Source: an uncultured Actinomycetota bacterium
GTDB taxonomy: Bacteria > Actinomycetota > Actinomycetes > Propionibacteriales > Nocardioidaceae
Length of the DNA: 64,000 nucleotides
Assembly: GCA_963759965.1 (NCBI GenBank)
Contig: CAVXBM010000016.1
Location: 65,033-129,032, forward strand
Direction: 5' to 3'
The translations under genes were made by a program, and so were the position numbers. Of the stretch, positions 8,544 through 63,862 are shown one piece after another (position 1 is the first letter of the stretch; each line of letters begins with the position of its first letter). The notes under the pieces are model-generated. The model was not told where the DNA came from. It worked only from the letters and a program-made list of their open reading frames with translations, and searched no databases.

Positions 8544-11500
8544 GTGCGAGTGCGCGTGCTCGGGCCGAGCCGGCTGGAGGCCGCGGGGGGCGACCAGGTC
8601 GACCTCGGGGCCCGTCGGCCGCGCTCGATCCTGGCGGCGCTGGCGCTGAGGCGCGGCACCGAGGTTGCCGCGGAGTCCCTCGTCGACCTCGTGTGGGGGG
8701 ACACGGCCCCGCCCGGCGCGCACGGCACGCTGCACTCCTACATCTCGGGGCTGCGCCGTTCCCTCGAGCCCGAGCTGAAGCCGCGGGAGAAGCCGACGGC
8801 GCTCGTCACCACGGACCGCGGCTACCGCCTCGCCCTGCCCGTGGAGGCCGTGGACAGCGCCGCCTTCGCCGACGCGGTCCGGGCACGGCACCGGGACCTG
8901 GCACCCCTCACCGGCCTGCTCACCGGGGAGGGCGCCGAGGCGTGGCCCGACCGGTCCTCGGTGTCCGGGTGGGTCGACGAGCTCGAGGGGCTCCTCGGCT
9001 GGTGGACCGGTGAGGCGTACGCCGACCTGCCCGACCATCCCGAGGTCGACGCAGCACGGGCCGGCCTGGAGCAGCTGCGGCTGCAGGCCGAGGACGACCG
9101 GGACCTGGGGCTGCTGGCGCTCGGCGACCACGCGACCGTGGTGGCTGCGACCGAGCAGAACACCGCCCGCAACCCGCTGCGGGAGTCGACCTGGGCCCTG
9201 CACGCCCTGGCGCTGACCCGCTCGGGCCGGCAGGCGGACGCGTTGGAGGCGCTCCGGCAGGTGCGCTCGGTGCTCGCCGAGGAGCTCGGCATCGACCCCG
9301 GCCAGGAGCTGCGCGACCTCGAGCAGAAGGTGCTGGAGCAGGATCCGCTCCTGCTCCGCCGCCTCCCGGACACGGTGGCCGTGCCGGACGTCGCGCCTGC
9401 CGTGACCAGCGCACCGCTGGCCCCGGCGCGGAGGGCGGGCGGAAGCCCCTGGACCACGGTGGGGCGCGCCAAGGAGGAGCTCGCGCTGCGCGAGGTGCTC
9501 GACCTCGCCGACGCCGGCACTCCCGCGTGCGCACTGCTCGTCGGCGAGGCGGGCATCGGCAAGACCCGCCTGGTGGAGGATCTGGCCGCGGAGGCGATCG
9601 CCCGCGGCTTCGCCGTCGGCGTCGGGAGGTGCTCCTCCGACGAGGGGGCCCCGCCCCTGTGGCCCTGGGTCGGTCTCCTGCAGGACCTGGCGTCGCACGA
9701 GGGGACCGCGCTCACCGCTAGCGTGCGCGAGGTCCTCGCCGGCGTGGAGAGCGGCTCGGACGACCCGTCGGCCGACCCGACGGAAGACGCGTTCCGCACC
9801 TGGGAGGCGCTGGGCCGCGAGGTCACCGACCGGTCGCTGCACCGTCCGGTGCTCGTCGTGCTCGACGACCTGCACTGGGCCGACGCGACCAGCCTGCGCG
9901 TGCTCGCCCACCTGCTGAACGCGTTGAGCACCCGGCAGCGGCTCGCCGTCGTGGCGACCCGGCGCGCGTGGCCGGGTGCCTCCCTCGCCGGGCCGGAGGT
10001 CGACGAGTCGTTCGCGCGCCGCCACGTCGCGCGGCTCGACCTCACGGGGCTCGCGGAGGACGACACCCTCGCGCTGGTGTCAGCCGTCAGAGGGACCGAC
10101 GTGCCCACCGAGACGGCCGAAGCGTGGCGGACCCGCGCCGCGGGCAACCCGTTCTTCCTCGTCGAGCTGGCCCGGGCCTCGGGCTCGGATGCCGACGGCG
10201 CGCTGCCGACGACCGTGCGGGACGTGGTGCTGCGCCGGGTCGGCGCTCTTCCCGAGCAGACCCGGGACCTCCTGCTCGACGCCGCCGTCCTGGGCCGTCG
10301 CTTCTCCGTGGAGGTGCTCGCCCGGGTGGTCGAGCGGGACGTCGGCGCGGTCGACACGGACCTGCAGCCGGCGCGAGACGCAGGTCTCGTGATCGACGTC
10401 GACGAGCAGACCGTGACCTTCTCTCACGCCCTGACCCGTGACGCGGTGGCCGGCTCCACCTCGGCACTGCGCCTGGCCCGGCGGCACGCGCGCGTGGCGC
10501 ACGTGCTCGAGCACGACGAGGAGGTCCTCGCCCTCCTCCAGCCCGAGGAGCGCACCGCGGAGCTCGCCCGGCACTGGCTGGCCGCAGGCCCGACGCACGT
10601 GGGCCGGGCCTGGCGGGCCGCCGCCGAGGCCGCGGCGCAGGCGCGACGCTCGTTCTCCCACGAGGAGGCGGCGGCGCTGCTCGGCGGCGCCGTCGAGGCG
10701 CACCGTCGGGACCCCCAGGGCACCCCCGAGGAGCACTTCGACCTGCTCCTCGCCAAGGCGCGCGACCACCAGAGCTACGCCGACTGGGCGAGCGTCGTCG
10801 CCTGCGCCTTCGAGGCGGTCGCGCTCGCGCGGCACGAAGGCGATCCCGTGCGCATGGCGCGGGCTGCGGCCGCGTTGACCGACCGGACGATGTGGCTCGC
10901 CCACGGGTGGAACCAGGTGCACGAGGACGCGATCGACGACCTGCGGTGGGGGATGCGTGAGCTGGCCGCCCACGACTCCCCCGAACGTTGTCAGCTGATG
11001 CTCGCGCTGGCCGTCGAGCTCTACTACGACCCGACCGCGACCGCGGAGCGCGCGGCCCTCGTGGACGAGGGGCTCGCGATCGCGCACCGGATCGACGACG
11101 ACCGGCTGACCGTCTGGGCCTCCCGCACCGCGTGGCTCGCTCTCTGGAACCCCTGGCAGCTGACCGAGCGCACCGCCCTGTCGACGGCTGCGTTGGACGC
11201 GGCTCGACGCGCCGGCGACCCGGACCTCGTCGCCGTGAGCCTCGCCAACGCCGCCGCGGACGCGATGGAGGCGGGTGACCGTGCCGGGTTCGAGCGGCTG
11301 GCGGGGGAGGCGACACGGCAGGCCCGTCGGCGGCGGCTGCTGTACGTCAACCTGGCTCTCGGCTGGGTGGAGCTGCACCTGGCGTCGCTCCGGGACGACG
11401 AGGACTGGCTCGAGGGCTGCGTGGCGGCGCTCCGCCCCCTGATCGCGAGCACCACGGTGATCGACGTGGACGTGCAGCTCGCGGCGCTCGAGGTGGTCCC

Positions 11501-26537: not shown

Positions 26538-26610
26538 AGCGCCGAGGAGCGCCCGCCGAGTCCGATCGGTGGCGACCTGAGCGCAAAGGTGCGGCGCCGG
26601 ACGGGGCCTG

Positions 26611-26700
26611 CCCGGGCAGGCTAAAAGAGGCGTGGACGGCGTAGCGAGACGCAAGCAGGCAGAGAGCGACCGGCCGACACGGCGACATGTCCTGCCCGGG
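26611..26700 (+). repeat. Structured intergenic repeat, copy 1 (candidate ncRNA/REP-like element)
   Basis: Stem CCCGGGCAGG/CCTGCCCGGG encloses invariant blocks CTAAAAGAGGCGTGGACGGCGT and ACCGGCCGACACGGCGACATGT. See findings. Confidence 0.8.
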
Positions 26701-26774
26701 TAGGTCACGGCAGGTGCCGCGCCGTGGTGACCACGGCGACCGGGCGTGGTCTCGACGGGCGTTCCTCGGCTAGC

Positions 26775-26826
26775 GCCTCGTCACTGCTCGACCAACGTGG
26801 GCGGCCTCGTCACTGCTCGACCAACG
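26775..26826. repeat. Two direct 23-nt repeats (period 29 nt) just downstream of the GNAT stop
   Basis: GCCTCGTCACTGCTCGACCAACG occurs at 26775-26797 and 26804-26826. Confidence 0.85.
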
Positions 26827-26830
26827 ACAC

Positions 26831-27478
26831 CTACTGCAACGACCAACGGGCTTGGCGTTGAGCGGCCGGCGCGGTCCGACCCGGCCGGACGACTCCGAGC
26901 AGCCGCTCCAACGCCGACTCGACCTCTTCCCTCCACGTCAGCACCGACCGCAGCTCCAACCGCATCCGCGGATGCCGCGCATGCCCGCGCACGGTCCGGA
27001 ACCCCACCCGCTGCAGGAACTCCACCGGCAACGGACACCCCTCGGTCGGCCCACCCACGACCCCCACGCACTCCACGGCCTTGATCCCACCCCGCTGCAG
27101 GAGGTCCTTGACCATCACCTGCATCAGCACCCGTCCGAGACCCGCACCCTGGAACCCCTCGAAGACCTGTGCGGTCGCCAGCTGCACGGCGTCCTCGCCG
27201 AGGGGCGCGGAGGGGTACGACGCGGTGCCGGCGAAGAAGGAGACGGGGCCGTAGAGCACGAACCCGGCAGCCTCGTCGTCGACGTACGCCACCCTCCCGC
27301 ACGAGCCCCACTCGAGGAGCGTGTGCGAGAGCCAGGCCTCCTTCTCGGCGACCGAGGCGCCGGCACGCTCGACACGAGCCCGCTCGACGGGGTCGAGCTC
27401 CCAGTGGAGGCAGCTTCTGACGTCGTCGGGCAGGTCCGCCAGGGTGTCCACCGTGAGTCGGGACAGGCGTCGAGCCAT
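26831..27478 (-). CDS. GNAT family N-acetyltransferase (Rv3916c-position)
   Basis: ATG 27478 (MARRLSRLTVDTL..). Acetyl-CoA motif FQGAGLGRVLMQ. Confidence 0.75.
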   Translation of the reverse strand: MARRLSRLTVDTLADLPDDVRSCLHWELDPVERARVERAGASVAEKEAWLSHTLLEWGSCGRVAYVDDEAAGFVLYGPVSFFAGTASYPSAPLGEDAVQLATAQVFEGFQGAGLGRVLMQVMVKDLLQRGGIKAVECVGVVGGPTEGCPLPVEFLQRVGFRTVRGHARHPRMRLELRSVLTWREEVESALERLLGVVRPGRTAPAAQRQARWSLQ

Positions 27479-29823: not shown

Positions 29824-30593
29824 CCGACATCACCTACTACTCGATCATCGGCGCGGCCCACGGCTGGTTCAAGGCCATGGACTTCCGCTTCCACGTCACC
29901 GGCCAGGAGAACATCCCCCACGACGGCGGAGCCGTCATCGCGGTCAACCACATCTCCTACGTGGACTTCATCATGGCCGGCTACGGCGCCCGCTGGTCCA
30001 AGCGCCTGATCCGGTTCATGGCCAAGCGCGAGACCTTCGACCACAAGGTCACCGGTCCGATCATGCGCAACTGCAAGCACATCAGCGTCGACCGGTCCGA
30101 CGGGCTCGCGTCCTACGACGAGGCCGTGCGCCGTCTCCGGGCCGGCGACATCGTCGGGGTCTTCCCCGAGGCCACGATCTCGCGCAGCTTCCTCATCAAG
30201 GACCTCAAGACGGGTGCGGTCCGCATGGCGGCCGACGCCGACGTCCCCCTGGTGCCGATGGTCCTCTGGGGCACGCAGCGCCTCATGACCAAGGACCACC
30301 CGCGCGACCTCTCGCGGCACAAGACCATCACCGTGACCATCGGCGAGCCGATCGACCCCCAGGGCGCCACCGCGGCCGACAAGACCAAGGACCTCCACCG
30401 CGCGATGTCCTCGATGCTCGACAAGGCCATCTCCGAGTACCCCGCCGACGAGCAGCCCCCCGGGTCCTGGTGGTTGCCGGCGTCGTACGGCGGCTCGGCT
30501 CCCACGCCCGAGGAGGCCACCGCGATGGATCGCGAGGAGATGCGGTTGCGCGCCGAGAAGCGGCGGGCGGCGAAGAAGGCCGAGTCGGAGTGA
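29820..30593 (+). CDS. plsC: 1-acyl-sn-glycerol-3-phosphate acyltransferase family
   Basis: ATGA overlap with ddl. HX4D motif NHISYVD and FPEAT motif. Confidence 0.85.
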   Translation: MTDITYYSIIGAAHGWFKAMDFRFHVTGQENIPHDGGAVIAVNHISYVDFIMAGYGARWSKRLIRFMAKRETFDHKVTGPIMRNCKHISVDRSDGLASYDEAVRRLRAGDIVGVFPEATISRSFLIKDLKTGAVRMAADADVPLVPMVLWGTQRLMTKDHPRDLSRHKTITVTIGEPIDPQGATAADKTKDLHRAMSSMLDKAISEYPADEQPPGSWWLPASYGGSAPTPEEATAMDREEMRLRAEKRRAAKKAESE

Positions 30594-30640
30594 CCCGTCG
30601 CCCGTAGGTCACGGCGCCGGTGACGCCGTCCCGCCCACTA

Positions 30641-30732
30641 CCCCGGCGAGGACATGTCGCCGTGTCGGCCGGTGGCCACGTGCCTGGTTGCGTCCAGCGA
30701 CGCCGTCCACGCCTCTTTTAGCCTCGCCGGGG
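30641..30732 (-). repeat. Structured intergenic repeat, copy 2 (inverted orientation)
   Basis: The reverse complement reads CCCCGGCGAGG-CTAAAAGAGGCGTGGACGGCGT-..-ACCGGCCGACACGGCGACATGT-CCTCGCCGGGG. Confidence 0.8.
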
Positions 30733-30779
30733 CAGCGTTCGGGCCGACACCCCCGTCACCGCGCGGTGCGTCCGACGGG

Positions 30780-31649
30780 TCACTCCGGCTTGGCGTGAGG
30801 TGGGGCTTGGTCGAGCTCTTCATGGGAGAGGTGGAGGCCGAGGCCGTCGCGGCAGAAGTCCTCGCCGAAGGGGGTGAGGTGGATGGACCTGCGGACCACC
30901 TTGGAGCGGCGCACGGAGTGGCGCGCCTCGGTGACGTCGGGCTGGGCCTCGAGGACCTGGTACTCCATGGGGTCGCGCAGGGTCTCGCGGGAGAACCAGA
31001 TGAGGCCGAGACGTTCGAGGTTGTGGAGGTACGACGGGACGCGGTCGACGTAGCGGCAGCCGGCGAGGGCGCCGATCATGTTGAGGTTCGCCTGGACGAG
31101 GTTCGAGGACACGCTGCCCACGAGGCCGCCGGTGCGGACGTCGACGGTCGCCTGGGGGCCCTTGCGCAGCAGCAGCAGGAGGATGCGGCCCTCGTCGGGC
31201 GCGAGCTCGCCGATGATGCGGGCGTAGGCGGGGTGACTGGTCTCGTCGGACCAGACGTCGCGGGAGCGGCGCAGCAGGTCGCGGCCCGCGGCGTGCAAGG
31301 GGTTCTCCGGCTCGTCGTCGACCTGGGAGGGCGAGACGGTCTCGATCGTCTCGGCCATGACCCGGATCACGGGGTTGTGCGACGCCGCGGCGCGCATGCC
31401 GTCGACCTGGTCGCCGAGGAGCGCCCGGGAGATCGCGCCGGCCGCGAAGCGGAGGTCCTCGGCGAGCTCGCCGGCGTGCTCGGGATGGATCGCGACGTCG
31501 AGGACGCGGCGGCCCGCGTTGACGCCGGTGGCGGCTGCCCAGGCCCCGATCCTCAACGAGGACAGGGCTGCGACCTTCGCGAGGCCGGTGAGGTCGCCGC
31601 TGCTGAGGGGCCTGGATCCGTTCACCGGGCGGGGCTCGAGCTCGCTCAC
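30780..31649 (-). CDS. Hypothetical protein, translationally coupled to the DUF445 gene (possibly Abi-alpha/DUF4393-like; unverified)
   Basis: GTG 31649 overlaps the upstream stop (GTGA). 289 aa, VSELEPRPVNG...HPAYARIIGELAPDEGRILLLLL... GC3 is high. The N-terminal 423 aa of track ORF 30780..32918 are an alternative-frame artefact. Confidence 0.65.
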   Translation of the reverse strand: MSELEPRPVNGSRPLSSGDLTGLAKVAALSSLRIGAWAAATGVNAGRRVLDVAIHPEHAGELAEDLRFAAGAISRALLGDQVDGMRAAASHNPVIRVMAETIETVSPSQVDDEPENPLHAAGRDLLRRSRDVWSDETSHPAYARIIGELAPDEGRILLLLLRKGPQATVDVRTGGLVGSVSSNLVQANLNMIGALAGCRYVDRVPSYLHNLERLGLIWFSRETLRDPMEYQVLEAQPDVTEARHSVRRSKVVRRSIHLTPFGEDFCRDGLGLHLSHEELDQAPPHAKPE

Positions 31650-35091: not shown

Positions 35092-35107
35092 CGTTTCACG
35101 TGAAACA
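35092..35107. promoter_or_regulatory. parS site
   Basis: CGTTTCACGTGAAACA matches the conserved parS core GTTTCACGTGAAAC exactly. Confidence 0.85.
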
Positions 35108-35320: not shown

Positions 35321-36010
35321 TTAACGACGTGACCGGCGCGGACGCTGCGACCTTAACGTCGGGTCAGCGCCCGCCTCCACTCGCACCACCGTGGTCGGGA
35401 AAGTCAGTGAACTCGATCCGATGTGGACCACTTCCGGCGCGCGGCCGCCCAGCCTGGCGACCGTCGACCGGACGGACTCGAGCTCGTCCGAGGCTGAGCT
35501 GCCCTTCATCGCCAGCACCACTCCACCGCTGCGCGCCAGGGGGAGCGACCACGGCAGCAGACGCTCGAGGGGGGCCACCGCCCGCGAGGTCACGACGTCG
35601 AAGGCGCGGGTGCCGGCCACCTCCTCGGCCCGGCCGCGGAGGACCTCGACCTGGTCCTCGAGGCCGAGGATGCTCACCGCCTCCTCGAGGAAGCGGGTAC
35701 GACGGAGCAGCGGCTCGAGCAGTGTCACGGTCAGGTCGGGACGACGTACCGCGAGCACCAGACCGGGCAGTCCGGCCCCGCTGCCCACGTCGACGACCGA
35801 GGCGCCCTCGGGCACCAGGTCCGCCACGACCGCGCAGTTGAGGAGGTGACGGTCCCAGAGCCGGGGCACCTCACGCGGACCGAGCAGCCCTCGTTCCGTC
35901 CCCGGTCCGGCGAGCAGCTCGGCGTAGCGGACCGCGAGGGGGAGCCGAGCAGCGAAAACCCCCGCTGCCTCGGGAGGCGGCGGGGGTGTTTCACGTGAAA
36001 CGTCGCTCAT
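35321..36010 (-). CDS. rsmG: 16S rRNA (guanine527-N7)-methyltransferase RsmG/GidB
   Basis: 229 aa with the SAM motif DVGSGAGLPGLVLA. Confidence 0.9.
   Translation of the reverse strand: MSDVSRETPPPPPEAAGVFAARLPLAVRYAELLAGPGTERGLLGPREVPRLWDRHLLNCAVVADLVPEGASVVDVGSGAGLPGLVLAVRRPDLTVTLLEPLLRRTRFLEEAVSILGLEDQVEVLRGRAEEVAGTRAFDVVTSRAVAPLERLLPWSLPLARSGGVVLAMKGSSASDELESVRSTVARLGGRAPEVVHIGSSSLTFPTTVVRVEAGADPTLRSQRPRRSRR
35987..36002. promoter_or_regulatory. parS site inside the first codons of rsmG
   Basis: TGTTTCACGTGAAACG encodes ..DVSRET.. of RsmG. Confidence 0.85.
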
Positions 36011-38798: not shown

Positions 38799-38956
38799 TG
38801 TGGAGAACTCCTTGATCCACAGGCTGGAGGCTTGTTAGCGTCAGCCTCTCCCGAGGTTCCCCCACGGTTTTCCCCACGTCCACGACACCGTGCTTCGGGC
38901 GGTCCTTTACCAGACGTCCCACACCGTGCACAACCTGTGGATAAAGGTGTGGAGGA
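38799..38956. promoter_or_regulatory. DnaA-box cluster upstream of dnaA (autoregulatory/origin-flanking)
   Basis: TGTGGAGAA 38799-807, TGATCCACA 38813-821, TGTGGATAA 38936-944 (perfect), TGTGGAGGA 38948-956. Confidence 0.65.
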
Positions 38957-40514: not shown

Positions 40515-40914
40515 CGAATTCCTGGGGAGCACGCTGTGCACGAACCGGCTCCACCTCGGGACGGGCTGTGGAGAACTACAGCAACCCGGTCGGAACGTGT
40601 CGTTCGCTCCCCAGGTCCGCCGTCACGACGGGGCGGTCGTCCACACCCCCGGTGGACACGAATTCGGGGGCTGACCTGGGCGGACACCGGTTGTCCACAG
40701 TTTCCACCGTTGCTACGACTACGACGAGAATTCAACTCTCCGGATCACTCGTGAATTCGTCCTGGGCGCCCTTCCTGGGGACAACGCCTCGAGCACAGGC
40801 GTGCGCTCTCCCGATTGTCCGGGCCTCGTGGCAGGATTCAGGTCCGCACGCGCGTGCGGCGTTCGTCCCATCACCGGGTGTCCGCGTGCCCCGGTCGAGC
40901 AGGAGGCACCTCCC
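40515..40914. promoter_or_regulatory. oriC: oriC candidate (dnaA-dnaN spacer)
   Basis: Perfect TTGTCCACA 40691-699, TGTGGAGAA 40567-575, TCGTCCACA 40637-645, GTGGACAC 40652-659. Lowest-GC patch at ~40725-40762. Four GAATTC sites. Confidence 0.7.
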
Positions 40915-51738: not shown

Positions 51739-52824
51739 ATGCGCGTGCTGGTGACCGGGGCCGGGGGGTACGTCGGGGGACGGCTCGTCCCGGTCCTGCT
51801 CGACCGTGGGCACGAGGTCGTGGCGACCTACTCCCGCGCCGTCCCGGAGGCTCAGGAGCGGGGCAAGGCACGGACCGGGCAGTGGTGGCTCGACCGGGTG
51901 GAGACCCGGGTCATGGACGTGCTCGACCGGGCGCAGGTCGAGAAGGCGTTGTCCGACGTCGACGCGGTGTTCTACCTCGTCCACGGGATGGGCGGCCCGG
52001 AGTTCCGGGCCCGCGACGCCGAGGGTGCCCGCCACGTGGCGGAGGCCGCGGCGGCCGTCGGCGTCGATCGCATCGTCTACCTGTCGGGCATCATCCCCGA
52101 CATCCCCGAGGACCGGCTCAGCGAGCACTTGTCGTCCCGGCTCGAGGTCGAGCGGCTGCTCGGGTCGACCGGCGTCCCCACCATCACGCTGCGTGCCGCC
52201 GTCGTCCTCGGCAGCGGCTCCACCTCGTTCGAGGTGATCCGGCAGGTCTCCGAGCGGTTGCCCGTCCAGACGCTGCCGCAGTGGATGACCTCGCTCGTCC
52301 AGCCCATCGCCGTCGTCGACGTGCTCGAGGCCCTGGCCGGTGCCCTCGACCTCCCCGCTGAGACGCGGTGGTTCGACGTCGGGGGCCCCGAGCAGCTGAA
52401 GTACTCGGCCATGCTGCGCCGCTACGCCGCGGTGGCACGCCTGGTGCGCCCGCAGCTGCCGTTGCTCACCGCGCCGCGCCACCTCGTCGGCAGGATGGCC
52501 GGGCTGCTCACCGGGGCACCCAGCTCGACGGTCGCGGCCCTCGTCGAGAGCCTGCCGCACGACATGGTGTGCCACGACGACAGCTTCCGCGCGGCGCTGC
52601 TGCCCGACGGCTACGAGCTCCTCGGGGTCCGCGACTCGATCGCCCGCGCGCTGGTCCGGCCTCGCGCCGGCATCCGTCCCGAGGACCGCGACCCGATGGG
52701 TCCGCTGCCGGGCGACCCCAGCTGGGCCGGCGGTGAGGTGTACCTCTTCGACGGCCAGGCGCGACGTCGTCCGCGCTCGAAGCTCGCCGGACTGCTGCTC
52801 GGTGTGCCGCGGCCCGGTCGATAG
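51739..52824 (+). CDS. NAD(P)H-binding SDR/NmrA-like protein
   Basis: MRVLVTGAGGYVGGRLV.. Rossmann motif. Confidence 0.8.
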   Translation: MRVLVTGAGGYVGGRLVPVLLDRGHEVVATYSRAVPEAQERGKARTGQWWLDRVETRVMDVLDRAQVEKALSDVDAVFYLVHGMGGPEFRARDAEGARHVAEAAAAVGVDRIVYLSGIIPDIPEDRLSEHLSSRLEVERLLGSTGVPTITLRAAVVLGSGSTSFEVIRQVSERLPVQTLPQWMTSLVQPIAVVDVLEALAGALDLPAETRWFDVGGPEQLKYSAMLRRYAAVARLVRPQLPLLTAPRHLVGRMAGLLTGAPSSTVAALVESLPHDMVCHDDSFRAALLPDGYELLGVRDSIARALVRPRAGIRPEDRDPMGPLPGDPSWAGGEVYLFDGQARRRPRSKLAGLLLGVPRPGR

Positions 52825-52826
52825 CC

Positions 52827-52874
52827 GGACGTCATTCTCAGCGGTCGCTCGAGCGACCCCTCGGTATGACGTCC
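52827..52874. terminator. Nested bidirectional hairpin between convergent genes
   Basis: Outer stem GGACGTCAT/ATGACGTCC encloses the palindrome GGTCGCTCGAGCGACC. Confidence 0.55.
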
Positions 52875-52878
52875 CCGG

Positions 52879-53526
52879 CTAGACCGCGTCGCGCTCCGGG
52901 TGGATGCGCACGCGGTCGGGGGAGAAGCCGCGCTCGAGTCCCCAGAGCACCGCGTTGGTGCGGCTGGTGACGCCCATCTTGCGGTAGCTGGTGCGGATGT
53001 AGGACTTCACCGAGTTGATCGACAGCGACGCCCGGTCGGCGATCTCGTTGTTGCTCAGCCCCTGGGTGATCAGCGCGATCACCTCGGCCTCACGCGCGGT
53101 GAGCCCCTCGGAGCGGCCCGGCCAGTCCCCGCCGACCAGCGGTGCGCCGCCCGGGTCGGGTGAGATCACGCGCTCGCCGGCGTGCACGGCTCGCAGGGCG
53201 ATGAACAGGTCCTCGCCGGACAGCGTCTTCGAGAGGTACGCCGAGGCGCCACGCGCGAGCGTGCCCTCGATGAGTCGCGCCTGGATGTTCCACGTGTAGA
53301 CCACCACCCGGCGGACCAGCGGGTTGTGGATGAGGTCCTCGACGTCGGGGCTGTCGCCCTGGGTCTGGGCGAAGGTGTCGTAGAGCGCGATGTCGACCGG
53401 CACCGACACGGGCACCTGGCTGTCGAGCTCGACGATCTCGAGCTCCCCGGTGTACGGCGACAGCATGTCCGCCAGGCCACGGACGACGACCTCGTAGTCG
53501 TTCACGATCGCGAGGCGGAGGGTCAT
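52879..53526 (-). CDS. LuxR/NarL-family response regulator (no adjacent histidine kinase)
   Basis: REC domain (..DIALYD.., ..VVVYTW.., ..AYLSK..) plus HTH LTAREAEVIALITQGLSNNEIADRASLSINSVKSYI. Confidence 0.85.
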   Translation of the reverse strand: MTLRLAIVNDYEVVVRGLADMLSPYTGELEIVELDSQVPVSVPVDIALYDTFAQTQGDSPDVEDLIHNPLVRRVVVYTWNIQARLIEGTLARGASAYLSKTLSGEDLFIALRAVHAGERVISPDPGGAPLVGGDWPGRSEGLTAREAEVIALITQGLSNNEIADRASLSINSVKSYIRTSYRKMGVTSRTNAVLWGLERGFSPDRVRIHPERDAV

Positions 53527-56395: not shown

Positions 56396-56462
56396 CCAAG
56401 AGCGAAGGCGGGGTGCGGTCTTGTCCGGCTCAGCGTCAGACGCGGCGTCGACCGGAGGCGCG

Positions 56463-56554
56463 CCCCGACGAGGCTAAAAGAGGCGTGGACGGCGTCGCCG
56501 GACGCGACCACGCAGTGAGCCACCGGCCGACACGGCGACATGTCCTCGTCGGGG
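56463..56554 (+). repeat. Structured intergenic repeat, copy 3
   Basis: CCCCGACGAGG-CTAAAAGAGGCGTGGACGGCGT-..-ACCGGCCGACACGGCGACATGT-CCTCGTCGGGG. Confidence 0.8.
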
Positions 56555-56644
56555 TGTGCAGCCGGGCGGCGCCGGGGCGGAGGCAACCACGGGACATGAA
56601 GGTGCCCCGACCGGAGCAACGCTCCGACCGGGGCAACCGAGACC

Positions 56645-60657: not shown

Positions 60658-62438
60658 TCAGCCCTCGTCCGGACCGACGGTGCCGCCGATCCCGTCGGGT
60701 GACTCCGTCGGTGTGCCGGTCGGTGTCTCCGTCGGCGTCTCGGTCGGTGTCTCCGTCGGGGTCTCCGACGGCTCCTCGTAGCTCGACACCGTGATCGTCA
60801 CCGTCGAGCCGCGGGGTGCCTCGGTGAGGCCCTCGGGATCCTGCTCGAGGACCGTCCCGCTCTCGGACGGTGTCTGGTCGTCGAACTCCACCGCGACCTC
60901 GAAGCCTGCTCTCCGGAGCTTCGCCTCGGCCTCGTCCTGCTGGAGGCCGACGACATTGGGCACCTCGACCGGCCCGTTCGAGAGGAGACGGTCACCGACG
61001 ACCCGGTGGCCACCGAGCTCGCCGGCGACGGGGTTCTGAGTCGATCGCGGTCCCGCGCGGCTCGTCGGAGTCGACGTTGCGGAACTCGGCGACGAGGCCC
61101 GCGTCGTCGAGCTTCTGCGGACGCCTCGGCCCGCGTGGACCCGACGACGTAGGGCACCACCGACTGCTTCGAGCCCGCGGAGACCTCGACGTCGACGGTC
61201 GAGTCGACGGCCACCGTCTCGCCCGGCTTCGGTGACTGGGACACGATGCGTCCGGTCGGGACGGTGTCGGAGTTGACGCGGTCGACCTCTCCGATCTTGA
61301 GGTTCTCCTGCTCGAGGCGGTCCGTGGCGGCTCGCAAGGTCATGTTCGTGACCTGCGGGACCTGCGTCTCCTTCTCGCCACCGAACAGCTGCAGGCCCAC
61401 GGCGATCGCCGCAGCGAGGAGGGCCAGGATCACGAGCACGAGGACGACGAGCGGCCAGCGTCGACGCCGCTCCTCCTCGGGCTCGTCCTCCGTGTCCGTC
61501 GTCGACCGGAAGATCGAGGTCTGCGGCTCCTCGGCCGCGACGACAGGGGCGGCCACGACGGTGGGGGCGTCCAGAGGCTGCCCGTCGAGGTAGCGCTGGA
61601 TGTCGGTCCGCATCTCCGCGGCGCTCTGGTAGCGGTCGTCGACCTTCTTGGCGAGCGCCTTCATCACGATCGCGTCGAGCTCGACGGGGAGCTCCGGGTT
61701 GTGCGTGCGCGGGGGGTCGGCCTGCTCGCGGACGTGCTGGTAGGCCACCGAGAACGGGCTGTCACCGACGAACGGCGGGCGCCCGGTGAGCAGCTCGTAG
61801 AGCAGGCAGCCGGTGGAGTAGACGTCGCTGCGGGAGTCGACGGTCTCGCCACGCGCCTGCTCGGGGGAGAGGTACTGCGCGGTGCCGACCACGGCGGAGG
61901 TCTGGGTCATCGTCGAGGTGCCGTCGGCGATCGCGCGGGCGATGCCGAAGTCCATGACCTTGACCTCGCCGCTCGGGGTGAGCATCACGTTGGCGGGCTT
62001 GATGTCGCGGTGGATGATCCCGGCGCGGTGGCTGTAGTCGAGGGCGGCGAGCACGCCGCTGGTGATCTCCAGGGCCCGCTCCGGGAGGAGCTTGCGTCCG
62101 TCGTTGAGCACGTCTCGCAGGGTCCGCCCCGCGACGTACTCCATGACGATGTAGGGCTGGACGTGCGTGCCGTCCGGCGCCATCTCCTCGCCCGTGTCGT
62201 AGACCGAGACGATGTTCGGGTGGTTGAGCCCGGCAGCTGCCTGGGCCTCGCGGCGGAAGCGCGCCTGGAAGGTCGGGTCGGTCGCGAGGTCGGTCCGCAG
62301 CCGCTTGATCGCGACGGTCCGGCCGAGCCGGATGTCGGTGCCGCGCCTGACCTCGGCCATGCCGCCGCGACCGAGGAGGTCGGCGATCTCGTAGCGTCCG
62401 CCGACGCGCGGCTTGCCGCTGTTGGTCGTGTCGTCCAT
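60658..62438 (-). pseudogene. pknB: Ser/Thr protein kinase PknB (kinase-TM-3 PASTA), frame broken 2-3 times in PASTA-2
   Basis: Kinase motifs GRGGMAEV, VAIKRL, HRDIKPANVM, DFGIARA, SPEQARG. PASTA-1 is in the frame of ORF ..63224. PASTA-3 and the tail are in the frame of ORF 60658..60963. The middle part QKLDDAGLVAEFRNVDSDEPRGTAID is in the third frame. Confidence 0.85.
60705..60770 (-). repeat. 12/24-nt tandem repeats encoding (TPTE)n in the PknB tail
   Basis: GGTGTCTCCGTCGGCGTCTCGGTC / GGTGTCTCCGTCGGGGTCTCCGAC encodes ETPTETPTETPTETPTGTPTE. Confidence 0.8.
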
Positions 62439-62449
62439 GCTCCCAGCCC

Positions 62450-63862
62450 CTACCCTCGACCGCGCTTGTCGTGGCCCTTGCCGTCCTTGCCGGGACCCTT
62501 GCCCGGCTTCTCCTCCTTGGGCGCCTTGCCCCACACCTCGACGGTGACGTCCGAGCCACGCTCGACCTCGCCCGTCGGGCTCACCGCCGCGACGGTGCCG
62601 TCCTTCTCGTCGCCCGGGTTCTCCCGCTCGGTGAGCACGGGGTTCAGCCCCGCCTCCCGCAGCTGCTTCTCCGCTTCGGGCGCCTTGAGCCCGACGTACG
62701 TCGCCGGGTCGACCGTCACGGTGTCGGCCGCCGGCGACTCCTCGTCCGACGTGTTCGAGGCGGCGCCGGTCGTGGTCGTGCTGGACGCACCGGCCGACGG
62801 CCCTGAGGTCGGTCCCGCCGACGGCCCGGCGCTGGTGTCGTCGTCGTTGCCCGACAGCAGCTGTCCGGCTGCGAACGCGACCACGACGAGCGCGAGCACG
62901 GCGAGCCCGCCGAGCAGGACGCCTCGCGGCACGGGCTGCCGGGGTGTCGTCGTCGCCGGTCCGATGGTCGTGGGCGGGCCGTCGACGGCCGTCGTCGCGG
63001 GCATGACCGTGGTGCGCACGTCGGCGGCCTCGCCGCGCAGGGCGGCCGCCATCTCGGCGGCGCTCGCGAAGCGCTGGTCCGGGTCCTTCTCGGTGGCCCG
63101 CGCCGCGATGTCGCGCAAGTGCTGGGGGACGTCGTCGGGGATCGGCGGGAGCGGGTCGCGGACCTGCATGAGCGCGGTGGCGACCGGGGACTCCCCGACG
63201 AACGGCTTGTGGCCGGTGAGGCACTCGAAGAGCACGATGCCGAGGGAGTAGACGTCGCTCGCCGGGATCGAGCCCTTGCCCTCCGCCTGCTCAGGGGCGA
63301 GGTAGTGCGGGGTGCCGACGAGGTGACCGGTGACGGTGAGCGGCAACGCGTCGGCGGCGCGGGCGATGCCGAAGTCGGTGACCTTGACCCGGCCCTCGGG
63401 CGTCACCAGGAGGTTGCCGGGCTTGACGTCGCGGTGCACGATCCCGAGCACGTGGGCAGCCTCGATGCCCTCGGCCGCCTGGGCGATGAGGTCGGCCGCG
63501 ACCTGCGGCTCGAGCGGTCGCTGGTCGACGAGCAGCGCGGACAGCGGCTGACCGTGCACCCGCTCCATCACCAGGTACGGCTGCGGAGACCCGTCCTCCT
63601 CGTCGCGGCGGGGGAGCTCGCCGTAGTCGAGGACGGCGGCGACGTGCGGGTGGCTGAGGGCCGCGGCGTGGCGCGCCTCGGCGGCGAATCGGGCGCGGAA
63701 CACCGGGTCGTCGGCGTGCTCGCGCTTGAGCACCTTCACCGCGACCTCGCGCTCCAGCACCGTGTCCGTGGCCGACCACACCTCACCCATGCCGCCGACC
63801 GCGATGAGGCTGTCCAGCTGGTAGCGGGGGTGCTGGAGCGGTGCGGTGCCGCCGGGGCTCAT
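62450..63862 (-). CDS. pknA: Ser/Thr protein kinase at the PknA position, with TM and one C-terminal PASTA-like domain
   Basis: [39 protein letters not shown] segment [20 protein letters not shown]-terminus [51 protein letters not shown]. Confidence 0.88.

Follow-up and report, generated by a model that had tools for sequence, protein, structure and literature searches.

The 64-kb stretch of DNA analysed here (the window) contains three copies of a structured, unevenly constrained and strand-asymmetric unit, one of which lies within an intergenic structure that was gained recently. Most likely, the unit represents a new family of small palindromic intergenic repeats rather than a new kind of RNA gene and, as the evidence stands, there is no call for a new class of RNA or mobile element. 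As our best explanation, to which we give an even chance, we propose a dispersed stem-loop repeat of the REP/MITE/SPRITE/bcr1 kind that is non-autonomous, restricted to one lineage and co-transcribed as a 3'-end hairpin.

The repeated unit and its covarying closing stem

Direct reading of the three loci showed that the copies have in common a 70-nt core (CTAAAAG...ACATGT) that includes two 22-nt blocks and is enclosed by a stem:

26606-26705, plus strand: copy 1 unit; 15-bp stem 26606-26620/26691-26705; core 26621-26690; blocks 26621-26642 and 26669-26690; 122.5 bits
30637-30736, minus strand: copy 2 unit; 15-bp stem; core 30652-30721; blocks 30700-30721 and 30652-30673; 124.5 bits
56459-56558, plus strand: copy 3 unit; 15-bp stem; core 56474-56543; blocks 56474-56495 and 56522-56543; 122.5 bits

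An earlier note on this DNA had reported three copies that share two identical blocks, and this is borne out: both blocks occur exactly three times in the 64-kb window, with 0 mismatches. No further match to either block was found elsewhere in the window at ≤3 mismatches (shuffle expectation 0.00), and no degenerate copy was found in the window with a covariance model (R1) that was built on the three copies and run with filters off; across the window and eight loci of relatives, R1 returned the three known copies as well as ordinary hairpins and nothing more. The constraint on the unit is uneven, i.e. the blocks contain no variable columns (0 of 44) while the rest of the unit contains 27 in 56 (Fisher p=5e-9), and the 11 variable core positions all lie within the central 26 nt. 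In total, we conclude that the repeat is real and non-random.

The closing stems are CCCGGGCAGG/CCTGCCCGGG in copy 1, CCCCGGCGAGG/CCTCGCCGGGG in copy 2 and CCCCGACGAGG/CCTCGTCGGGG in copy 3. They differ in sequence and stay complementary, as previously described; they are longer than had been noted and reach 15 bp in every copy if G.U pairs are counted on the core-sense strand. Accordingly, the terminal inverted repeats are perfect over 11 bp in all copies and extend over 15 bp with G.T pairs. In an ungapped 100-nt alignment of the three paralogous copies, 45 of 45 stem cells are paired, and both sides have changed at 8 of 15 stem pairs, a count that comes from three paralogous copies only. 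This covariation was matched by 0 of 500 shuffles, and slid registers pair at 39-53%. A one-base register shift in copy 1 accounts for several of the eight both-side changes; the cleanest independent events are a G-C to A-U change between copies 2 and 3 and a CG/GC swap in copy 1. Only one base pair distinguishes the 11-bp stem of copy 2 from that of copy 3, the stem of copy 1 has 7 of 10 positions in common with these two and a length that is equal within 1 nt, and the junction between stem and core is without leftover loop nucleotides. In our reading, the stem covaries because it needs pairing while its sequence is free.

Inside the core, the RNAalifold consensus pairs the invariant blocks with each other (CGUG/CACG and CGGC/GCCG). 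All of these predicted inner pairs are invariant and, therefore, the inner fold is neither supported nor rejected; no covarying pairs are present inside the core in this consensus of three copies, and all 11 variable core positions fall in its loops or bulges. An inner hairpin, GCGT(C)..(G)ACGC, which had been thought to be kept in all copies, did not hold up, having an A.G mismatch in copy 1 and no covariation.

The compensatory changes themselves are observed; the earlier statement that such changes are not expected of drifting MITE ends is too strong, because bcr1, which is transcribed, keeps its fold via compensatory changes (PMC3184786). With this precedent, compensatory change is expected in this class of repeats and is not by itself a sign of a host RNA gene. 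Moreover, the arms of a palindrome can stay complementary via templated self-correction. Given this self-correction and three paralogous copies, compensatory change does not separate RNA function from single-strand DNA mobilisation.

Gene ends, locus-specific palindromes and strand asymmetry

Genes were called from codon-position GC and Pfam. All three copies lie between convergent genes, in agreement with the earlier note, and the three pairs of stops were located:

Copy 1: amidase gene (plus strand), stop TAG 26535-37; GNAT-like gene (minus strand), stop CTA 26831-33
Copy 2: plsC-like acyltransferase gene (plus strand), stop TGA 30591-93; Abi_alpha gene (minus strand), stop TCA 30780-82
Copy 3: DUF3817 gene (plus strand), stop TAG 56393-95; gene for a 279-aa protein (minus strand), stop TCA 56645-47

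Each copy is 43-68 nt downstream of the stop of the co-oriented gene; this co-orientation weighs little because either orientation between convergent genes is downstream of a gene. Around copies 1 and 2, the analysis gave neither a promoter-like nor a terminator-like site, and in all three copies no T-run follows the stem. Since actinobacterial terminators often lack a U-tract, a terminator role is possible.

The window covers the origin region, with trxB, trxA, the amidase gene, ddl, the plsC-like gene, parB and parA, and on to rnpA, rpmH and dnaA. The flanking genes examined are housekeeping genes of this region and one Abi_alpha gene, and no RAYT or transposase is present among the window genes examined. 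The Abi_alpha (PF14337) gene (30780-~31640, minus strand) matches the PADLOC candidate defence family PDC-S47 (4.6e-12), and its homologues on plasmids are distant ones only; it is an accessory gene, possibly for anti-phage defence, that was inserted directly downstream of parB. Elsewhere in the window, 12-nt-period repeats (GTGTTGGACGGG-like, seven overlapping copies) at 736-878 lie inside the minus-strand ORF 599-2182 and probably encode a four-residue repeat in a protein. The stretches 61726-62022 and 63156-63446, which are 1.4 kb apart and have 72-80% identity, we interpret as a pair of neighbouring paralogues.

Each unit forms the apex of an imperfect palindrome that is far longer and locus-specific:

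26541-26770, plus strand: long palindrome of copy 1; arms 26541-26620/26691-26770, 80 nt, 70% complementary
30579-30794, minus strand: long palindrome of copy 2; arms 30579-30651/30722-30794, 73 nt, 73% complementary
56433-56584, plus strand: shorter palindrome of copy 3; arms 56433-56473/56544-56584, 41 nt, 76% complementary
26700-26733, plus strand: local hairpin GTAGGTCACGGC..GCCGTGGTGACC, an alternative fold of the copy 1 right arm
26775-26797 and 26804-26826, plus strand: two direct repeats of 23 nt without mismatch, GCCTCGTCACTGCTCGACCAACG, at a spacing of 29 nt

Beyond the stem, the outer arms are self-complementary with z ~7.5 in copies 1 and 2, and weakly so, with z 2.1, in copy 3. 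Comparison of the outer arms between copies gave no significant homology. Thus, the repeated unit is ~92-100 nt and the arms are locus-specific; a conserved element of 140-230 nt was considered and dropped on the same grounds. No family was seen for the outer-arm motifs TAGCCGRGGA and GGAGTGACCCGTCG.

At two of the loci, the stop codons of the neighbouring genes abut the palindrome or lie within it. The left arm of copy 1 begins directly past the TAG of the amidase gene, and a mirrored CTA (26771-26773) closes the right arm. In copy 2, the outer 23 nt of the arms hold the final ~14 nt of coding sequence and the TGA of both neighbours, GCCGAGTCGGAGTGACCCGTCG and GCCAAGCCGGAGTGACCCGTCG; the two segments, 30579-30601 and 30772-30794, match in inverted orientation at 20 of 23 positions, with 15 nt in the centre that match perfectly, so that the plsC-like gene and the Abi_alpha gene, which are unrelated and on opposite strands, end alike in A-E-S-E* and A-K-P-E*, respectively. 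Next to copy 1, both 23-nt direct repeats are near-identical to the 3' end of the minus-strand GNAT-like gene (stop 26831-26833) and fall inside the ~293-nt intergenic stretch that was gained relative to relatives (see below); judged from these sequences, the repeats look like a local duplication of the gene end adjoining copy 1.

Beside the stop of the minus-strand gene at copy 3, a second hairpin, CCCCGACCGGAGC..GCTCCGACCGGGG, is present at 56601-56641; its sequence is a 71% direct copy of the copy 3 left arm (56449-56482). Between another convergent pair, an imperfect palindrome of 86 nt without a core (52808-52893) covers both stops (TAG 52822-24 and CTA 52879-81).

Taken together, the outer arms, the gene-end inversions at copy 2, the 23-nt repeats and the 71% copy of the copy 3 arm suggest that local duplication by fold-back or template-switch synthesis may have occurred at a strong hairpin. 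Flanking direct repeats indicative of a target-site duplication are absent at copies 2 and 3; the flanking direct repeat at copy 1 arises because the copy 1 stem is itself palindromic.

The GTAG-headed hairpin that had been described next to copy 1 is the local hairpin at 26700-26733, and it is really part of the right arm of the longer palindrome. Its 12-mer, GTAGGTCACGGC, was correctly placed at 26700 and in copy 2, and the proposed likeness to REP elements is weak: the 12-mer occurs at two sites only in the window, 26700 and 30604-30615 (plus strand), the latter of which sits in the copy 2 right arm in an orientation to the core opposite to that in copy 1, and the position after the stem is occupied by GTAG in copies 1 and 2 and by GTGT in copy 3.

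The two strands of the palindromes are not equivalent. On the core-sense strand, mismatches in arms and stem are G.T in 17 cases versus A.C in 5 (p=0.017), and this strand is predicted to fold 10-21 kcal/mol better than its complement:

Copy 1, long palindrome: sense -147.0, antisense -125.6 kcal/mol
Copy 2, long palindrome: sense -138.6, antisense -128.5 kcal/mol
Copy 3, long palindrome: sense -95.5, antisense -78.9 kcal/mol
Coreless palindrome 52806-52895 (control): -54.6 and -55.5 kcal/mol, symmetric

From this asymmetry, the element seems to function in single-stranded form and in one polarity only, either as RNA transcribed from the gene upstream or as one DNA strand. Part of the G.T excess could result from C>T mutation that is biased to one strand.

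Distribution and recent gain

Among 185,579 species-representative genomes, the block-1 17-mer was not found in an element context; its 59 matches in these genomes are chance matches, with one per unrelated genome and none accompanied by block 2. A metagenome scan with the block-2 17-mer, which is a G+C-rich pattern, gave at least 120 matches, and those listed are chance matches in coding DNA. Similarly, 15 of 15 matches in viral contigs were by chance, most of them in one conserved stretch of ~10 contigs that we read as coding sequence. In plasmid and phage collections, no blastn match to the element was found, and the concatenated six-frame peptides of the element had no match among 5.8 billion predicted proteins. 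Finally, two tRNAs were the sole matches in the window to Rfam 15 at the gathering threshold, and E-value scans of all three loci gave chance matches (E ≥0.85) with scores far below gathering. The earlier note, in which the element was not recognised as a known RNA family, was thus borne out for the window and the loci.

Of the named relatives, Marmoricola and Nocardioides are closest. The gap between the amidase gene and the GNAT-like gene is 14, 13 and 8 nt in relatives whose amidases are 82%, 79% and 76% identical, respectively; in the window, it is 293 nt. The gap between the acyltransferase (plsC-like) gene and parB is 36 nt in the relative at 76% (L202), and the corresponding interval in the window holds copy 2 and the Abi_alpha gene. 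In relatives with 92%, 91% and 84% amidase identity, the short-read metagenome contigs stop 47-76 nt past the amidase stop, i.e. inside the left arm (L060 end, 11156-11202; L061 end, 2079-2135; and the contig of P0004). As far as sequence is visible in these close relatives, they have retained the inner arm, and their outer arm is divergent and contains indels. Because three contigs of close relatives end at this locus, we suggest that G+C-rich hairpins probably break short-read assemblies.

From these comparisons, the structure at the copy 1 locus is absent at 76-82% amidase identity and appears to be present at 84-92%. With a gap of 8-14 nt at the copy 1 site in relatives, the whole structure there is a recent gain and, as judged from the genomes compared, it arose within a narrow Nocardioidaceae clade.

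Origin of the element and comparison with known systems

The element occupies three unrelated intergenic sites, is missing at the sites of relatives and is not known from elsewhere; it is, therefore, a dispersed repeat and something must have copied it. We propose that a unit with a G+C-rich closing stem of 11-15 bp and an apical region of 70 nt, in which the two invariant 22-nt blocks lie, would have spread into gaps between convergent genes within a narrow Nocardioidaceae clade, and that it would work in single-stranded form and in one polarity only. Most likely, it would be transcribed together with the co-oriented gene upstream, as the 3' UTR of that gene; there, it would form the tip of a very stable hairpin that could terminate or protect the mRNAs from both convergent genes. 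Recognition by the copying enzyme, i.e. a trans-acting transposase or recombinase, or by a binding protein would take place at the surface formed by the invariant blocks. Against this reading stand the number of copies, which is three and all ≤30 kb from oriC, and the lack of a target-site duplication, of a U-tract behind the stem and, among the window genes examined, of a transposase or RAYT. Finally, the outer arms would be secondary inverted duplications seeded by the stem of the unit via fold-back or template-switch synthesis.

We also considered a structured RNA that is selected by the host, either as a cis-acting 3'-UTR element or as a processed small RNA, in which the 70-nt apex would be functional, the stem would be a platform for processing or stability, and the spread would be incidental. 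Such an RNA, which we regard as rather unlikely, would account for blocks that are invariant next to positions that vary, for the covarying closing stem, for the G.U excess and folding advantage on the sense strand, and for the placement of all variable core positions in predicted loops or bulges. However, no pair covaries within the core and the inner predicted pairs are all invariant; no promoter-like site accompanies copies 1 and 2; three paralogous copies have no statistical power; and the copy 1 and copy 2 sites are empty even at 76-82% amidase identity, which is unusual for a host RNA. Moreover, the lack of the block-1 17-mer in an element context among representative genomes and the lack of an Rfam relative both count against it.

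In a further, unlikely reading, the unit itself creates gene ends. The unit would insert between convergent genes, and fold-back or template-switch copying of one flank would follow, in inverted orientation and seeded by the stem, giving rise to a long, locus-specific bidirectional terminator; both neighbours may thereby get new terminal codons and stops, as at copy 2, and the apex would be an undescribed protein-bound module of RNA or single-stranded DNA.

Alternatively, the repeated unit could be the bare 70-nt core (plus AGG/CCT), inserted into the loops of pre-existing terminator hairpins; each stem would then be a terminator in its own right, which would make the covariation trivial. Each copy is located exactly at the apex of a locus-specific palindrome with non-homologous outer arms, a long palindrome without a core is present at another convergent pair, and ordinary hairpins with CCCCGNCG..CGNCGGGG stems are present in the relative L202 (18393-18426 and 19162-19200), all as expected for such insertions. 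By contrast, the stems are too similar for independent terminators (copies 2 and 3 are one pair apart, and copy 1 is alike at 7 of 10 positions), loop nucleotides between stem and core are completely lacking, and the 8-14-nt gap of relatives at the copy 1 site is without a hairpin to insert into. We consider insertion of a bare core distinctly unlikely.

The window is centred on the chromosomal origin and all three copies lie ≤30 kb from oriC, a clustering that would be explained if the element were a double-stranded DNA site for an origin-proximal nucleoid, partition or replication factor. Two near-consensus parS-like sites (35092-35107 and 35987-36002) and two clusters of DnaA-box-like 9-mers (38799-38944 and 40567-40784) are found in this region, the blocks are invariant, and block 1 as read contains GTCCAC, the core of the DnaA box. 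Nevertheless, a duplex site is very unlikely, with a covarying 15-bp stem and a strand-asymmetric G.T pattern that would be needless, and with absence of the element from related genera that have the same origin region. The canonical parS sites and DnaA boxes are present elsewhere and are unlike the blocks; accordingly, identity of the blocks with parS or DnaA boxes was rejected.

Finally, it is scarcely credible that the element encodes a small protein from a reverse-strand ORF that begins with ATG (MSPCRPVA.C..AS..AVHASFSL.G): all three copies keep this frame open, 3 of 8 variable core codons are synonymous and codon position 2 holds 1 of 11 variable sites, but this periodicity on 11 sites is not significant, the ORFs (84, 356 and 49 aa) continue into non-homologous flanks, GAGGA is just 1 nt ahead of the ATG and thus in poor geometry for ribosome binding, and the six-frame peptides lacked matches among predicted proteins.

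If the preferred reading of a dispersed stem-loop repeat is true, the small palindromic intergenic repeats gain a family from a high-GC actinobacterium, with an unusual layout that combines an invariant interior with a covarying stem and locus-specific outer arms. The element would also provide a dated example of the conversion of an 8-14-nt gap between convergent genes into a hairpin region of ~290 nt with remodelling of gene 3' ends. What stands out most is the invariant apex, together with the way in which the palindromes, each specific to its locus, grow and take in gene ends. If hairpins of this type break short-read assemblies, the family will be under-represented in metagenome-assembled genomes.

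Several known systems share part of this layout. Integron attC sites are imperfect palindromes at gene 3' ends that are recognised as folded single strands and in which structure is more conserved than sequence, and copy 2 resembles an attC site in adjoining an inserted accessory gene (Abi_alpha). However, attC sites have conserved outer core sites (RYYYAAC/GTTRRRY) and a variable centre, i.e. a layout opposite to that of the present element; these motifs are absent at the element ends, no integrase or recombinase is present among the neighbouring genes examined, and copies 1 and 3 carry no cargo.

Correia elements of Neisseria and the enterobacterial ERIC/IRU elements are imperfect palindromes of 100-170 bp that are co-transcribed with adjacent genes, form long hairpins and affect mRNA processing or stability. 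These elements are conserved over their full length including the terminal inverted repeats, and Correia elements duplicate TA; by contrast, the present element has ends that vary, interior blocks that are invariant and outer arms that are locus-specific. As in MITEs, terminal inverted repeats are present; a target-site duplication of fixed length is not. REP/BIME elements, which the Y1 HUH transposase RAYT mobilises, and the present element are both G+C-rich extragenic palindromes that favour convergent intergenic regions, and they would be alike in that a structure on one DNA strand is recognised. REPs are 20-40 nt long with small loops, and occur in hundreds of copies that are often clustered, whereas the present unit is 92-100 nt with a conserved interior of 70 nt; the conserved GTAG-type head that defines these 20-40-nt palindromes is replaced by GTGT in copy 3.

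The terminator-like SPRITE repeats (~105 nt) and the REPs of Pseudomonas occur preferentially at convergent 3' ends (PMC3184786). The likeness to SPRITE-type repeats lies in the position between convergent stops, which all three copies occupy, and there is no sequence relation; moreover, the present element differs from the SPRITE type in having no U-tract after the stem, a conserved 70-nt apex in place of a small loop, and an actinobacterial host of high GC content. Lastly, 5-bp direct repeats flank the MITE-like bcr1 (~155 bp) of the Bacillus cereus group, whereas the present element has no target duplication and no sequence similarity to bcr1; nevertheless, both are dispersed and intergenic, and the distribution of both is non-conserved among relatives.
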